From NCBI GenBank assembly GCA_028715175.1, contig JAQUSJ010000002.1:22285-86284 (forward strand): DNA of 64,000 nt, read 5' to 3'. The notes under the pieces were generated by a model, which saw only the letters and a list, made by a program, of their open reading frames with translations, was not told where the DNA came from and did no database searches. Positions 2,742 through 37,262 of this stretch are shown piece after piece (within the stretch, counting starts at the first letter, position 1; each line of letters begins with the position of its first letter). Both the position numbers and the translations under genes were made by a program. Source of the stretch: Candidatus Daviesbacteria bacterium. Lineage in GTDB: Bacteria; Patescibacteriota; Microgenomatia; Daviesbacterales; UBA10151.

Positions 2742-3848
2742 TTACTTCTTGCAGTATATCCCAGCACCCATGCTTTGAACAAGTCCCGAGATTTCCATTC
2801 TTAAAAGAAGTGCTGAAATTTTTGGCGAATCAAAATTTACTAATCTTCCAATTTCATCAATGTGCATTTCTTCGTTCTCCAAACATTCCAGAATTTTTTT
2901 CTCTTCTTCGGAAAGATTCTCGTTTTGCGCTCCCGCCCCGAGCGAAGCCGAGGAGTTGAACTTTGCACTTTGAACTTGATTAATCCCTAACTGTTCCAAA
3001 ACTTCATCTACGCTAAATACAGCCATAGCGCCATTTTTTATAAGCCCGATCGGGCCTTTGGATAGATTTGAGGTAACCGGACCAGGCACGGCGAAAACTT
3101 CCCGACCCTGCTCCAAAGCAGATCTCGCTGTAATAAGCGACCCTGAGTCTTCCGCTGCTTCAATCACCAAAACCCCCAGGGATAAACCGGAAATAATCCT
3201 GTTCCTGGCAGGAAAATTCCCCGGTAAAGACGGACTATCCGGAGGGAATTCCGAGATAACTGCCCCAAAGCCTCCGGCGATTTTCGCAGCCAGTCCTCTG
3301 TTTTCCGAAGGGAAGATATTATTTAACCCGCCTCCCAAAACCGCAATTGTCTGTCCGCCCTCAGAAATAGTAGTCAAATGCGCCTGGCTATCTACTCCCC
3401 GGGCCAACCCTGAGACAATGGTGAACCCTGCTTGAACCAACCCTCTGGTAAATTGTTCAGTCACTACCTTACCATAACCTGTTATTTTCCTAGTCCCTAC
3501 AACTCCAATAGCTTTTTCATCCAAATCCAGGTTTCCTTTATAATAAAGGACTATCGGCGGATCATAAATTTCCGCAAGTAGTTTGGGATAATTCTCATCA
3601 AAGACAGTAACCCATTTTATTCCACTTTCAGCTATTTTCTTTGCATAAGTTTCAGGCTCTAAATTCTTGCGGGTTTCTATCAAAAGGTTAACAGTATTTT
3701 TGTAGATGCCAAGTTTTAATAGCTCTTCTCCGTTTACCTCCCAGGCCAGTTTTGGATCTTTGAAATACTGCAAGATAGCCTTCAGTCTAATTGGCCCCAA
3801 ACCGTCTATGGAATGAAGAGCTAGTAAGTATGGATCATTTTGAACCAT
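2742..3848 (-). CDS. dprA: DNA processing protein DprA (Smf)
   Basis: Rossmann-like DprA core motifs 'GLARGVDSQAH', 'AVLGGGL', 'ISEFPP'. Confidence 0.85.
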   Translation of the reverse strand: MVQNDPYLLALHSIDGLGPIRLKAILQYFKDPKLAWEVNGEELLKLGIYKNTVNLLIETRKNLEPETYAKKIAESGIKWVTVFDENYPKLLAEIYDPPIVLYYKGNLDLDEKAIGVVGTRKITGYGKVVTEQFTRGLVQAGFTIVSGLARGVDSQAHLTTISEGGQTIAVLGGGLNNIFPSENRGLAAKIAGGFGAVISEFPPDSPSLPGNFPARNRIISGLSLGVLVIEAAEDSGSLITARSALEQGREVFAVPGPVTSNLSKGPIGLIKNGAMAVFSVDEVLEQLGINQVQSAKFNSSASLGAGAQNENLSEEEKKILECLENEEMHIDEIGRLVNFDSPKISALLLRMEISGLVQSMGAGIYCKK

Positions 3849-3850
3849 TT

Positions 3851-5710
3851 TTATTCCCCCAAAACCCTACCAGATTCTGTAGCAGAACCATAAACATCCT
3901 GGATTAGTTTATTTTTATCGGGGGAAAAATACCAGCGGTAAACCTCTTTGACTATTGGTGCGGCAACGCTCGATCCTTCCCCTCCGCCTTCCACCAAAAC
4001 AGTTAAAGCTATTTTGGGATCATCGACAGGGGCAAAAGAGGTATACCAGGCATGAGTTTTACCTTTTGGGTCGCCATATTCCGCTGTGCCGGTTTTACCT
4101 GCCGTCGGAATTGGGAAGCTAAAGAATGGCCAGGCTGTCCCGCCTGCTTGCGGGACCAGTTTCATTCCTTCTTTAACCTTCGCTACGTGTTCTTTTGATA
4201 ATAAATTGGAGGCTATAATTTTAGGCGAATCATTCAAGAGAAGCTCTGGTTTATAAAGTATACCCTCACCTGCAATATAGGAGGTAATCCCCAAAATTTG
4301 AAGCGGTGTAGCCAAAACAAACCCCTGGCCAATCGCCATATGCAAAGTATCTCCCGGATACCAGGGTTGCCTGAAATTATTTTGTTTCCATTCATTCGTA
4401 GGAATGAGCCCTGTCTCCTCGCCAGGTAAATCTATCCCCAGTTTTCCGCCCAGATTCAACTTCCCGGCCCAATCTACCAGGCTCCCCTCACCAACGATTT
4501 GCGCAATTTTATAAAAGTAAGTATCGTTTGACCGCTCAATAGCTTTTGTTAGATTTAAGAAACCTTCAGTCTTACCATATTGGTTAAAATACCAATTGGA
4601 AAATCGATACGACCCCAAATACATCACGCCGGTATCTTCAAAAACTGTATCCGGGCTGATTTTGCCGGAGGCAAGGGCAGCAAGAGCGGGAATAATCTTA
4701 AAAGTTGACCCGGGAGGATAAGTACCGCCTATAACCCTGTTTAGGATCGGAGAATCTGAGCGGGAAAGAATTTCACTGATAATCCCATCATTGTCGTTTT
4801 GCGAAAACACATTCGGATCAAAAGAAGGCAAAGATACCAACGCTAAGATCTTACCGCTTGTCGGATCTTCTGCTACTGCAGCGGCACAACAACTGCCGGA
4901 TTTAGATAGCGCTTCTTTCATTAACTCGAAAAGCTTTTCCTGCAAAGATGCATCAATCGAGAGGTAGATATTTTGTCCTGGAATCGGAGCCTGATGCCTT
5001 AAAGTCCGCAGTTTCCGACCTGTTGAATCAACTTCAATAATTTCTCCTCCGTCTGTTCCACGCAGTATTTTTTCATACTGCGCCTCTATCCCGATTTGAC
5101 CGATAACATCTCCCGGATGGTAATCCTTAAATTCTTGACTTTTAAGTTGATTTTCCGTAATCTCTCCCAAAAACCCCACAACATGTGCAAATTCGGCCCC
5201 TAGCGAGTAGGTTCTGACATTGTCAACTTCCAAATTAAGCACTCTGGGATCATTTTTCACTTCCCACTCCAATGCCTCTTCTCTTGTCACATACTTAGTT
5301 TTAAATTTATCTTCGGAGCTAAAATTCAACCGGAAAGCCGGGGAATTGGCAGCCAAAATTTTACCATTGCGATCAAAAATGACTCCGCGGGGAGCATGAA
5401 CCACCTTGACCTGGATACGATTACCGTCTGCAAGAGCTCTATTTGATTTACCCTCAACTATTTGGAGATGGAAAAGTCTTAAAAAGATAATAAAGAACAA
5501 CACCAAACACAAACTCAAAAAAAATACGATCCTCCATATTCTTATCTTCGGCAACTCCTGGTTTTCCGGATGAAAATTTGGCAAAAGGAAATCTGTCCAA
5601 CTGCTCTCTTCCCCTTTTTTGAGTCCGCCAGCCGGCGGACCAACTTTAGCGGTGGCTTTTGTTACCTCTTCCAAAAAACCTGGACCTAAATTACGTTTTT
5701 TTTGCGCCAT
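3851..5710 (-). CDS. mrdA: penicillin-binding protein 2 (elongation transpeptidase)
   Basis: N-terminal TM helix; transpeptidase motifs STFK, SND and KTGT; sits next to mreC/mreD. Confidence 0.85.
   Translation of the reverse strand: MAQKKRNLGPGFLEEVTKATAKVGPPAGGLKKGEESSWTDFLLPNFHPENQELPKIRIWRIVFFLSLCLVLFFIIFLRLFHLQIVEGKSNRALADGNRIQVKVVHAPRGVIFDRNGKILAANSPAFRLNFSSEDKFKTKYVTREEALEWEVKNDPRVLNLEVDNVRTYSLGAEFAHVVGFLGEITENQLKSQEFKDYHPGDVIGQIGIEAQYEKILRGTDGGEIIEVDSTGRKLRTLRHQAPIPGQNIYLSIDASLQEKLFELMKEALSKSGSCCAAAVAEDPTSGKILALVSLPSFDPNVFSQNDNDGIISEILSRSDSPILNRVIGGTYPPGSTFKIIPALAALASGKISPDTVFEDTGVMYLGSYRFSNWYFNQYGKTEGFLNLTKAIERSNDTYFYKIAQIVGEGSLVDWAGKLNLGGKLGIDLPGEETGLIPTNEWKQNNFRQPWYPGDTLHMAIGQGFVLATPLQILGITSYIAGEGILYKPELLLNDSPKIIASNLLSKEHVAKVKEGMKLVPQAGGTAWPFFSFPIPTAGKTGTAEYGDPKGKTHAWYTSFAPVDDPKIALTVLVEGGGEGSSVAAPIVKEVYRWYFSPDKNKLIQDVYGSATESGRVLGE
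5623..5640. repeat. palindrome GTCCGCCAGCCGGCGGAC (a variant of the 16-bp TCCGCCAGCTGGCGGA element) in-frame in mrdA
   Basis: Encodes 'GPPAGG' in the PBP2 cytoplasmic tail. Confidence 0.7.
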
Positions 5711-14871: not shown

Positions 14872-14950
14872 ACCCTGAACGCGAACGACAAGAATCCCAA
14901 GTTCTCTGTCAAATTTGGCAAGTTGGCTTAACTCTGATAGAATTCCTGGT

Positions 14951-15541
14951 ATGGAAGTAGTTAAAGCGCCGGATGCAAAACTCCGAGTCAAAACCAAACC
15001 TGTTAAAAAAGTAGATCAAGCATTAAAAAACACCTTAAAGGAGATGATCAAGCTGACCAAAACCTTTAAAGATCCTGAGGGGGTGGGGCTGGCTGCCACC
15101 CAGATTGGCAGGAACGAAAGTTACTTTGTGGGCAGACTGCACGATTCCAAAAAATCCGCCAGCTGGCGGACTCCTTCAAAGCCTGGTCAAAGAAAAGACA
15201 GATGGGCAGGCTATGATAAGGAATTTTCTGCAATTATTAACCCTAAAATTTTATCCTATGGGAAGCACACCAGAACCTATTTTGAAGGCTGCCTGTCTAT
15301 TCCTGATGTCTGGGGACAAGTTAAAAGGTATACCAACATTAAAATTTCCTACCAAAACAGTGATGGCGAGCAAGTGACAAGAACTCTAAAAGGAATACCG
15401 GCCTGGATATTCCAGCATGAAACAGATCATCTAAATGGAATTTTATTTTCCGACAGAGTTTTGGAACAAAAAGGCAAATTTTATCGTTTTACAGGTAAAG
15501 ATAAAACAGGCACAGATTTATTTGAGGAAATAACAATATAG
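14951..15541 (+). CDS. def: peptide deformylase; start placed at the Met before 'PDAKLR', whereas the ORF-track start is 14915
   Basis: 'GVGLAATQIG', 'EGCLSIPD', 'QHETDHLNG' (the three PDF motifs); it carries an inserted segment that includes a 16-bp palindrome. Confidence 0.8.
   Translation: MEVVKAPDAKLRVKTKPVKKVDQALKNTLKEMIKLTKTFKDPEGVGLAATQIGRNESYFVGRLHDSKKSASWRTPSKPGQRKDRWAGYDKEFSAIINPKILSYGKHTRTYFEGCLSIPDVWGQVKRYTNIKISYQNSDGEQVTRTLKGIPAWIFQHETDHLNGILFSDRVLEQKGKFYRFTGKDKTGTDLFEEITI
15155..15170. repeat. 16-bp perfect palindrome TCCGCCAGCTGGCGGA in-frame in def
   Basis: Encodes 'SASWRT' within an insertion relative to canonical PDF. Confidence 0.75.
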
Positions 15542-15622
15542 CTTTCAGCTATCAGTCATCAGTCGTCAGACTGATATAATTTAAAAGTCTGAAAGCTGAT
15601 GGCTGAAGACTGACGACTATTT
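15541..15622. repeat. heptamer-array hairpin element, copy 4 (between def and fmt)
   Basis: 'gctttcagctatcagtcatcagtcgtcagac' - 'tgatataatttaaa' - 'agtctgaaagctgatggctgaagactgacgactattt' then ATG. Confidence 0.85.
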
Positions 15623-16327
15623 ATGAAAATCGCATTTCTAGGTACTCCGGATTTTGTTAAGTCAATCAGAAATGTCCTTGCCAAACACTACACTCTGGTA
15701 GATTCATTAGATGAGGCAGATCTTGGGGTAGTGGCTGCCTATGGCAGAATCCTGACAAAAGATGAATTAAATACCCCAAAATATGGCTGTATAAATATCC
15801 ATCCATCGCTTTTGCCAAAACACAGAGGCCCTTCCCCTATCCAGGAAGCCATATTAAAAGGTGATCGAATTTCCGGAATAACGGTTATCAAAATGGATGA
15901 GGAAGTGGATCATGGACCGATAATTTATCAAGAGGAAGTGGAGCTTTCTGATATGGATAATTTTGATACATTGAGTAAAAAAATGTTTCATCGGGCTAGC
16001 GAAATTCTACCCAAAATTATTGAAGATTTTATATCGGGTAAGACAAAACCAAGGTTACAGGATAACGCTCGAGCGACTCATTGTAACCGATTGACCAGAA
16101 AAAGCGGCTATTTTGATATTAATCCGCCAGCTGGCGGACCTCCACCTCCTGAGATCCTAGACAGAATGATTCGGGCATATCATCCCTGGCCGGGAGTTTG
16201 GACTAAATGGAATGGCAAAATTGTTAAATTTTATCCTGGTGGAAGAATCCAAATGGAAGGGAAAAAAGTTATATCGCTACAGGATTTTCTAAACGGCTAC
16301 CCTGATTTTCCTTTAAAGAAGCTTTAA
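15623..16327 (+). CDS. fmt: methionyl-tRNA formyltransferase (short form)
   Basis: 'INIHPSLLPKHRGPSPIQ' formyltransferase core; immediately downstream of def. Confidence 0.8.
   Translation: MKIAFLGTPDFVKSIRNVLAKHYTLVDSLDEADLGVVAAYGRILTKDELNTPKYGCINIHPSLLPKHRGPSPIQEAILKGDRISGITVIKMDEEVDHGPIIYQEEVELSDMDNFDTLSKKMFHRASEILPKIIEDFISGKTKPRLQDNARATHCNRLTRKSGYFDINPPAGGPPPPEILDRMIRAYHPWPGVWTKWNGKIVKFYPGGRIQMEGKKVISLQDFLNGYPDFPLKKL
16123..16138. repeat. 16-bp perfect palindrome TCCGCCAGCTGGCGGA in-frame in fmt
   Basis: Encodes 'NPPAGGPPPP'. Confidence 0.75.
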
Positions 16328-25761: not shown

Positions 25762-25776
25762 AGGGGTTGAACCCCT
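25762..25776. repeat. 15-bp palindrome AGGGGTTGAACCCCT (REP-like), copy 1
   Basis: Exact match, located between convergent genes. Confidence 0.8.
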
Positions 25777-25782
25777 AAAACG

Positions 25783-28460: not shown

Positions 28461-28521
28461 AATTTCTCTTTATATTAATAATTGTCATAATTTAAACAAC
28501 TAGTCAATATATCAAATTTTT

Positions 28522-28567
28522 AGGGGTTGAACCCCTAAAGCCTTTAAAAACCTTTAGGGGTTTGAGT
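28522..28567. repeat. AGGGGTTGAACCCCT palindrome (copy 2) joined to a second hairpin CCCCTAAAG-N-CTTTAGGGG
   Basis: Sequence 'taggggttgaacccctaaagcctttaaaaacctttaggggtttgag'. Confidence 0.75.
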
Positions 28568-30812: not shown

Positions 30813-30846
30813 AGAAACAGCTTATCATACTTTATCGAAGAAATAA

Positions 30847-30861
30847 AGGGGTTGAACCCCT
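30847..30861. repeat. AGGGGTTGAACCCCT palindrome, copy 4 (extended palindrome AAATAAAGGGG-TTGAA-CCCCTTTTATTT)
   Basis: Exact match, immediately upstream of the RAYT-like gene. Confidence 0.8.
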
Positions 30862-30869
30862 TTTATTTA

Positions 30870-36856: not shown

Positions 36857-36859
36857 CTT

Positions 36860-36874
36860 AGGGGTTCAACCCCT
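36860..36874. repeat. AGGGGTTCAACCCCT palindrome, copy 5 (opposite orientation of the centre base)
   Basis: Exact match 4 nt after the stop of the 1017-aa gene. Confidence 0.8.
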
Positions 36875-37262
36875 AAATGAATGTGTTGTAAAAGTAATGT
36901 ATCGACATTGCCACAACCACTCCAATCAACAGAAACCACTTATGCTTAAAGGTAGAAATAAGCATTATAAACATAGTCAGACTATGTAAAATACTAGTCA
37001 GAATAAATCTTGTAAGTAAAGTTGAAAGATCTCCTACCAAGGCTATATTTAAGGTGTAAAGAACGGTTTCGGAAAAGGTAAATAGTAAAGCGGCTGCCAA
37101 AACAACTTTGACTTGTATATTCCTCCTGGCACAATCTATAGCAAAAAATACCAAAAAGCCTTTCACTATTTCCTCAATAATATAAGGATAAGGCAGCAAA
37201 AGCTCGATAGGCCAGATAATAAACGGAGTAATAGCAGCTACTAACGGAATCAAAAAAGACAT
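36873..37262 (-). CDS. small polytopic membrane protein, possibly CPBP-family (CAAX protease-like)
   Basis: 'EEIVKG', '...LHS', 'HYFYN' are spaced like CPBP motifs 1-3; a weak call. Confidence 0.35.
   Translation of the reverse strand: MSFLIPLVAAITPFIIWPIELLLPYPYIIEEIVKGFLVFFAIDCARRNIQVKVVLAAALLFTFSETVLYTLNIALVGDLSTLLTRFILTSILHSLTMFIMLISTFKHKWFLLIGVVVAMSIHYFYNTFI

Follow-up and report, generated by a model that had tools for sequence, protein, structure and literature searches.

A 16-bp perfect palindrome, TCCGCCAGCTGGCGGA, occurs inside the reading frames of unrelated essential genes in a 64,000-nucleotide stretch, hereafter the window, of a 164,722-nt contig from a Candidatus Daviesbacteria (Patescibacteria) genome. 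Two exact copies lie in def and fmt and one copy with a single mismatch lies in mrdA; at each site the window is 12 nt longer than the orthologous sequence. We consider it probable, if by a modest measure, that the 16-mer copies form one family, that of a minimal palindromic insertion element which does not move autonomously and whose copies in genes have been filtered by selection.

The first copy (15155..15170) lies in the peptide deformylase gene def (14951..15541, plus strand; Pep_deformylase, PF01327, E 4e-44) and is read as S-A-S-W-R-(T). The second (16123..16138) lies in fmt, which encodes methionyl-tRNA formyltransferase (15623..16327, plus strand; Pfam domains Formyl_trans_N and Formyl_trans_C), and is read as (N)-P-P-A-G-G. 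The third, TCCGCCAGCCGGCGGA (5624..5639), supplies P-P-A-G-G in the N-terminal tail of penicillin-binding protein 2 (PBP2), the product of mrdA (3851..5710, minus strand; Pfam domains PBP_dimer and Transpeptidase). Translation yields the peptides that an initial annotation of the window had named: Def has SASWRT, and both Fmt and PBP2 have PPAGG. That annotation had counted three exact copies, which holds for def and fmt; the mrdA copy, TCCGCCGGCTGGCGGA on the coding (minus) strand, has one central mismatch and starts at 5624 and not, as had been given, at 5623, which is the start of an 18-bp quasi-palindrome around it (5623–5640, GTCCGCC..GGCGGAC). This copy looks like an older, partly decayed insertion.

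The 16-mer consists of a 6-bp GC stem around an AGCT centre and is the longest of the GC-rich perfect palindromes in the window, whose GC content is ~40%. With up to three mismatches allowed, 100 dinucleotide-preserving shuffles of the window gave no match, and the window itself holds no further degenerate copy beyond the three. No intergenic copy was found in the 64 kb. The view that the copies all lie in coding sequence and are far above chance expectation is thus upheld by Pfam-supported open reading frames and by the shuffles. The sequences that flank the three copies are AAAAAA/CTCC, ATTAA/CCTCC and GTTGG/CTCAA. An Rfam scan of the window returned five tRNAs only, with no match at the three sites.

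Alignments of ~120 orthologs per gene (121 sequences for Def) indicate that the encoded residues are additions. Where the Fmt consensus reads YFDIN-N-PPSPE, the window has N-PPAGG-PPPPE, one Asn codon giving way to five codons; where the PBP2 tail consensus reads ..KIG-H-FKKG, the window has G-PPAGG-LKKG, five residues for one His; and the Def consensus HDSKK-I-PPSKP corresponds to HDSKK-SASWRT-PSKP. Each protein thereby gains four residues. The same picture emerges from DNA. The closest relative, locus L122, is syntenic with the window (91% amino acid identity in Def, 83% in Fmt; def DNA ~95% identical, judged by eye), and both its def and its fmt sites are empty, with clean 12-nt length differences. 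Aligned to the window, L125 shows the same 12-nt gap at the def site. Each of six insertion sites compared in Daviesbacteria-related genomes has a net gain of 12 nt, with about one codon replaced by five. For sites in the PPAGG frame, the simplest description would have CCGCCAGCTGGCGGA take the place of a single AT-rich codon (AAT, CAT or ATT) or, equivalently, the 16-mer take the place of 4 nt; several alignments place the boundaries equally well, and this description is the one with the fewest extra changes, unproven as it is. The SASWR site of Def fits the codon-replacement rule less cleanly. In the ortholog DNA examined, PPAGG or SASWR is always encoded by the palindrome or by a form one step of decay away from it. 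Protein consensus and DNA gaps together thus sustain the proposal that the palindromes are insertions relative to canonical homologs and speak against conserved native sequence.

We examined where the inserted peptides fall using AlphaFold models built on the ortholog alignments of Fmt and Def. Fmt residues 168–172 lie in a predicted coil linker of reduced confidence between Formyl_trans_N, which ends at residue 132, and Formyl_trans_C, which starts at 179. Def residues 69–74 fall in the predicted coil 69–78, the only long internal segment with a predicted local distance difference test score below 50. The PBP2 copy is placed in the N-terminal tail, upstream of a hydrophobic stretch read as a membrane helix. 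The structural mapping suggested in the initial annotation thus returns a predicted disordered loop (Def), a linker (Fmt) and a tail (PBP2), and all three predictions agree with insertion at tolerant positions.

Other small insertions are found at or near these positions. Def loops gather several kinds of mini-insertion: the def gene of L125 (locus positions 1309–1905) has an 18-nt in-frame insert (SAASGS) with its own small hairpin, GCTGCCTCTGGCAGT, at another Def site, and that of L186 (1254–1898) has a 30-nt insert (AEDESKRARL) between perfect 9-nt direct repeats, GCTCGCCTC (ARL...ARL), which look like a target-site duplication. Related inserts are present at the same place as in L186 in the Def orthologs P0330, P0348, P0291 and P0337. 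At the PBP2 His position that takes PPAGG, the orthologs P0123, P0125, P0127, P0133, P0164 and P0233 have unrelated 7-residue inserts (NFRKSGL, DFQKTGH, SFQKNGH, DFKKKDH, FKSSDAK), some of which look like local duplications.

The distribution of the insertions among orthologs points to repeated gain. Carriers are scattered among non-carriers, and the sequences nearest to each carrier (80–93% identity) are without the insert. Neighbour-joining trees require at least 7 state changes for the 7 Fmt carriers, 6 for the 6 Def carriers and 6 for the 8 PBP2 carriers; at each permissive loop, ~5% of the orthologs in the three alignments carry an element. In one and the same Def loop the exact 16-mer is read as SASWR in the window and L185 but as PPAGG in L184, and L307 has it at a third Def site. 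Judged from these sequences, the Def insertions cannot be a single event. The scatter of carriers, together with the two frames and the third site in Def, therefore argues that gain has been recurrent.

Some copies are shared at orthologous positions. In L123 and L124 the palindrome occupies the Fmt codon at which it lies in the window. At the PBP2 site the 16-mer is exact in L181, where it holds the codon of the window copy; the centre is GGCT in the window and AGTT in L182, and decayed peptides (PPVGG, LPAGG, PATAG, PAIAG) are present. The PBP2 insertion is in part inherited by descent and is decaying. The mrdA gene of L183 has TCCGGCGACTGCCGGA (about 1314–1329), in which a C:G to G:C swap retains the 6-bp stem, a variant that reflects either compensatory evolution or the separate insertion of a variant palindrome. 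Where orthologs share a site, hardly any change is seen at the five four-fold-degenerate positions of CCG CCA GCT GGC GGA, while synonymous sites in the flanks differ, and the three SASWR carriers have the same 11 nt downstream of the element. The empty Fmt (..AAT CCC CCA..) and Def (..AAG CCC CCA..) sites resemble the left arm, AATCCGCCA, and the filled def site of L184 matches the filled fmt site of L124 at 27 of 28 nt, suggesting that microhomology may help insertion there. The empty mrdA site (Gly-His-Phe-Lys) has no such likeness.

To follow the 16-mer beyond the window, we scanned one genome per species; the matches listed, to which all counts of loci and copies below refer, comprise at least 120 loci with about 135 copies. 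The 16-mer is not private to the Daviesbacteria genome but is found across phyla. About 41 of the listed loci belong to Patescibacteria (many classes) and about 33 to Bacteroidota, and a few further ones to Cloacimonadota, Elusimicrobia, Gammaproteobacteria and unclassified metagenome-assembled genomes (MAGs). Carriers include the chromosome-scale records OY730416.1 (6.5 Mb) and CBDDGZ010000002 (5.8 Mb), taken as long-read assemblies, and the isolate Mucilaginibacter flavidus. Loci below 50% GC hold 97–98 of the listed copies; by our composition estimate, a 75%-GC word would be ~50 times commoner by chance in high-GC DNA. The high-GC matches seem to be coding sequence that fits by chance, read in the ...RQLAE/D frame. 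Most of the 55 stretches with the 16-mer on viral contigs are high-GC chance matches in coding sequence in this same frame, and the 55 gave no hint of a phage vehicle.

In stop-free stretches of at least 150 amino acids, 28 of the 36 listed copies are read in the PPAGG frame, 5 in the RQLA frame and 3 in the SASWR frame. No flank is conserved among the 97 low-GC copies tabulated; the flanks extend the palindrome at the first position as often as chance predicts (26%), and longer hairpins enclose only ~6% of copies. The unit is therefore sharply 16 bp. When the arms were held fixed in metagenome contigs (ATCCGCC-NNNN-GGCGGAT), the centres of 44 low-GC matches were led by AGCT (10), AGCC (8) and AACT/AGTT (6), and no centre dominated at high GC. 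We read this spectrum as that of a master sequence with one-step mutational decay, and not of selection for any stem-loop. Three copies in the 64-kb window, one in 20.6 kb of L307 and the extra copies in carrier loci give a density estimate of about one per 20–45 kb, or tens per genome, from loci that are biased towards carriers. These values and the finding of just one other recurring GC-rich palindrome family in the loci argue against a word that is uniformly frequent in any context.

That other family, CCTGCCTGCCGGCAGGCAGG, is the only further recurrent one among all GC-rich palindromes and 11-mers in the low-GC loci listed, with 19 copies in 12 loci and none in the window. It takes the form CCTGCC(TGCC)GGCAGG(CAGG) and is read LPAGRQ. 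This sister palindrome occupies the same Fmt hotspot as the 16-mer in the orthologs P0048, P0049 and P0111 and in L125 (about 2395–2420; DNA CCTGCCGGCCGGCAGG), and in L020 (about 130–150) it adjoins the 16-mer.

Some copies outside the window bear marks of insertion. Direct repeats of at least 7 nt flank 18 of the 97 low-GC copies listed (~19%), compared with 2.9% when left flanks are paired with the right flanks of other loci. The coding copies L035 2689, L105 3380 and L084 7377 are immediately bordered by A-rich direct repeats of 9–10 nt, for example CAAAAATCAA[P]CAAAAATCAA around the palindrome P. Many intergenic copies are located inside A-rich short-period tandem repeats. An RNA gene is entered as well: in the tmRNA of L027 (5052–5448, a Candidatus Spechtbacterales MAG) the palindrome is an insert in the linker that follows the last pseudoknot region.

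Copies are also met next to tRNA genes. In Bacteroidales and three classes of Patescibacteria, intact tRNA genes are met that have degenerate tandem duplicates of 5′ tRNA halves just upstream; in these the palindrome or a variant with the centre CCCT takes the place of some or all of the D-arm region (L006 3230–3395; L063 2185–2225 and 2500–2540; L045 about 40–100; L058 3985–4045; L023 1041–1115). ARAGORN and Rfam call no element-bearing true tRNA among these partial duplicates. Copies are only weakly enriched near tRNAs (6 of 98 listed, compared with 2.4% of bases).

Since one specific 16-mer adds length at many unrelated sites, it must have been copied from a template, whether the element is selfish or useful. 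The notion of a mobile palindrome raised in the initial annotation gains support from the 12-nt insertions, from recurrent gain in scattered lineages and from the predicted disorder of the sites. Under the insertion-element reading, existing copies would give rise to new ones by a trans-acting or repair-linked process and would land more or less anywhere. Selection would then act as a filter. The copies that survive in the genes of these gene-dense genomes do keep the frame, add a net 12 nt at the sites compared and encode a flexible peptide, mostly Pro-Pro-Ala-Gly-Gly, in predicted disordered loops, linkers and tails, or they sit in dispensable parts of RNA genes. Survivors subsequently decay by point mutation, as the centre variants and the peptides PPVGG, LPAGG and PATAG exemplify. 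The peptide itself would be a tolerated by-product and not a functional motif. Repeated use of the same loops may reflect the small number of permissive sites in compact essential proteins, to which target preference or short recombination patches could add. If one assumes several hundred to a thousand permissive sites, an occupancy of ~5% per loop would give tens of copies per genome; this agrees with the density estimate, so strict target specificity would not be needed. As a more tentative extension, the 16-mer and its sister may belong to a cross-phylum family of perfect GC-rich palindromes of 16–20 bp (TCCGCCAGCTGGCGGA, CCTGCCTGCCGGCAGGCAGG) that is actively propagated via a trans-acting enzyme, oligonucleotide- or repair-based insertion, or uptake-linked drive.

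Several observations weigh against an insertion element. We identified no transposase or other mover, for which no systematic search was made. The three window copies lack a target-site duplication and appear to replace 3–4 nt, which fits no textbook transposition chemistry, and the fast evolution of the loops makes the ends of the insertions ambiguous. The low-GC enrichment rests on our composition estimate, the scan having been run without a composition-matched control word. For a passive element, it is difficult to see why a non-coding 16-mer should be exactly the same across phyla. That carriers are scattered yet have it at identical codons could be due to short recombination patches that move between lineages. 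Finally, the P12 helix of Bacteroidota RNase P RNA is exactly the 16-mer, with no extra length (L074 4274–4680; L071 2699–3091; L093 480–873), and in L074 the P3 helix is the 16-mer too. Here the 16-mer is a native helix; part of the Bacteroidota signal, and some of the cross-phylum identity, therefore needs no mobility. The P12 helix could be a source of the 16-mer, or the match could be a coincidence of stable stems.

Some of these features would be accounted for by a functional DNA motif that is bound by a conserved protein, such as a competence uptake signal or a chromosome-organising site, and whose carrier alleles are favoured, through preferential uptake or recombination or through selection; its coding copies would simply lie where the protein can bear them. 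We regard this as unlikely. In its favour are the exact sequence kept across phyla, the near-absence of synonymous change within shared copies as opposed to the changed flanking synonymous sites, the compensating swap in L183 that keeps the 6-bp stem, and patchy carriers at identical codons with shared immediate flanks, which fit introgression by homologous recombination. dprA adjoins mrdA in the window, and competence genes are common in these bacteria. Like the DNA uptake sequences (DUS) of Neisseria, the uptake signal sequences (USS) of Pasteurellaceae and cyanobacterial HIP1, the 16-mer is a short over-represented word that also occurs in coding sequence, has a frame bias (the 28 of 36 listed long-frame copies in PPAGG) and lies in variable protein segments, here loops, as is described also for the uptake sequences of Haemophilus and Neisseria. 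However, known uptake sequences occur about once per kb, thousands per genome, so that 3 per 64 kb, 1 per 20.6 kb in L307 and the overall estimate of one per 20–45 kb are 20–50 times too low. They are also lineage-specific and, in DUS and USS, non-palindromic. HIP1, similarly dense and lineage-specific, has only 8 bp and entails no length change, whereas the 16-mer is sparse and gains length at every site examined. DUS, USS and HIP1 are described as arising mainly by substitution, not insertion. A binding motif would still demand a copying step, every coding case examined being a length gain, and it would have to accommodate both the visible decay of copies (PPVGG, LPAGG, PATAG and the centre variants) and the like behaviour of two unrelated palindromes. 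The open-access full-text literature yielded no paper linking 'DNA uptake sequence' with Patescibacteria. The 16-mer is unrelated in sequence to parS, the ParB site, a 16-bp palindrome with the consensus TGTTNCACGTGNAACA.

Selection of the hairpin for a role in RNA or transcription (terminator, processing, stability or translation pause), with one very stable sequence used over and over because it works, is improbable in our view. The RNA hairpin would be stable (−10.8 kcal/mol alone, −20.8 kcal/mol in the extended form at mrdA), in L046 and L085 the 16-mer caps longer hairpins that precede T runs, nested intergenic copies fit, and so do the P12 and P3 helices of RNase P RNA and the presence in the window of another hairpin family placed after stop codons. 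Yet the window copies are in the middle of reading frames of essential genes, where a terminator would be harmful; extension by the flanks is at chance and few copies are nested. Selection on structure alone would not fix an AGCT centre or exact arms across phyla, and it leaves the insertion of an identical sequence unexplained. Still less probable is that each copy arose locally, by template switching or snap-back synthesis at arm-like sites such as CCN-CCA Pro-Pro codons. The arm-like empty Fmt and Def sites and the near-identity of the filled L184 and L124 sites speak for such an origin, but the mrdA site lacks the resemblance, and the process predicts site-specific palindromes, not one 16-mer in def, fmt, mrdA, tmRNA and many phyla. 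A short-read assembly or library artefact, a chance match or native sequence has next to nothing to recommend it. Although most carriers are MAGs, the same insertion comes from independent samples (an NCBI MAG, Logan contigs from several runs, JGI assemblies) and from the chromosome-scale records and the isolate, point-mutated derivatives exist, the shuffle expectation is zero, and the frame is kept at all three window sites.

Among known systems, the 16-mer comes closest to the GC-rich repeats of AT-rich organelle genomes discussed below and, as the initial annotation had proposed, to the Rickettsia palindromic elements, reportedly described by Ogata and colleagues in 2000. The likeness to the Rickettsia elements holds for behaviour: both are palindromic families found in frame in unrelated, often essential genes, at permissive positions, translated, and patchy among orthologs. 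It does not extend to membership. The Rickettsia elements are imperfect palindromes of ~100–150 bp that add 30–50 residues, are restricted to Rickettsia and close relatives, and also enter RNA genes; the 16-mer is perfect and about ten times smaller, adds four residues, is present in several phyla and has a Daviesbacteria host outside the Rickettsiales. Its length (16 bp, net +12 nt) rules out homology, as judged against descriptions of these elements, their sequences not having been aligned. The MJRE2 repeats of Methanocaldococcus jannaschii, which Suyama and colleagues are said to have reported in 2005, are likewise palindromic, and a few lie within genes without breaking the frame; they are longer and form an old, divergent family in one archaeal species.

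GC clusters and short palindromic repeats are described from mitochondria of yeast and other fungi and from Volvox, and palindromes from mitochondrial coding sequence of Nematomorpha (PMC6649704). These are GC-rich hairpin repeats without coding capacity that proliferate in AT-rich compact genomes and occasionally lie within coding sequence, as the 16-mer does; they differ in being organellar, usually 30–60 bp or longer, and lineage-specific. We know of no cross-phylum identity for organelle GC clusters. Repetitive extragenic palindromic (REP) elements and REPINs, mobilised by RAYT transposases, are short GC-rich stem-loops that occur in numerous copies at dispersed sites, are not autonomous and would presumably be moved in trans (PMC3733652). 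REPs are extragenic, imperfect, 20–40 bp long, species-specific and tagged with GTAG/CGTC. The 16-mer can be set apart from this class, since all three window copies lie in coding sequence and have no such tag, and no flank is conserved among the 97 low-GC copies. Compared with MITEs (miniature transposable elements with inverted repeats), it is below the range of 50–500 bp and lacks a duplication at the window copies; elsewhere stands the excess of direct repeats noted above (18 of 97 listed, against 2.9%). Searches of the open-access full-text literature, including the literal sequences, returned no description of the 16-mer or the sister palindrome, and only the organelle and REP/MITE analogues. 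As an insertion element the 16-mer is apparently undescribed, and there is a real possibility that its propagation mechanism is new.

The Pfam scan behind the gene assignments took in ten open reading frames of the window. The ATG at 14951 used as the start of def agrees with ortholog starts; the list of open reading frames offers an upstream TTG at 14915. dprA (2742–3848) comes after mrdA. The def–fmt spacer (15541–15625, 85 nt) is one long hairpin (−34.7 kcal/mol, z = −6.5) made of short CAGTC/CTGAC-type repeats. A second hairpin family, (T)AGGGGTT[G/C]AACCCCT(A), has four copies in the 64 kb (25762–25778, 28521–28537, 30846–30862 and 36859–36875). Those at 25762 and 30846 are directly 3′ of an apparent in-frame stop codon and that at 28521 is in AT-rich, apparently intergenic sequence; the copies resemble terminator hairpins of a common type or a further family of small repeats. 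The palindrome holds GCTGGCGG on both strands (15162–15169 and 16130–16137), which we take to be one base off the Escherichia coli Chi octamer GCTGGTGG, a likeness that is possibly meaningless.

If the insertion-element reading is right, reduced episymbiotic bacteria carry a 16-bp selfish or driven element that repeatedly re-enters essential genes, even though 16 bp is far shorter than the end sequences that known transposases need. Should the cross-phylum family be propagated as we tentatively suggest, it would rank among the smallest self-propagating DNA elements known to us and would be a steady source of loop insertions of 4–7 residues in the compact proteomes of Patescibacteria. On the insertion-element reading, the 16-mer would account for part of the puzzling lineage-specific mini-insertions in proteins of these candidate phyla and would pose the mechanistic question of what copies it. 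Its copies would provide a natural map of insertion-tolerant loops and a marker of recent gene flow among habitat-sharing lineages and phyla. In practice, the strings PPAGG, SASWR and LPAGRQ in metagenome proteins would be recognisable as element-derived and not as functional motifs.

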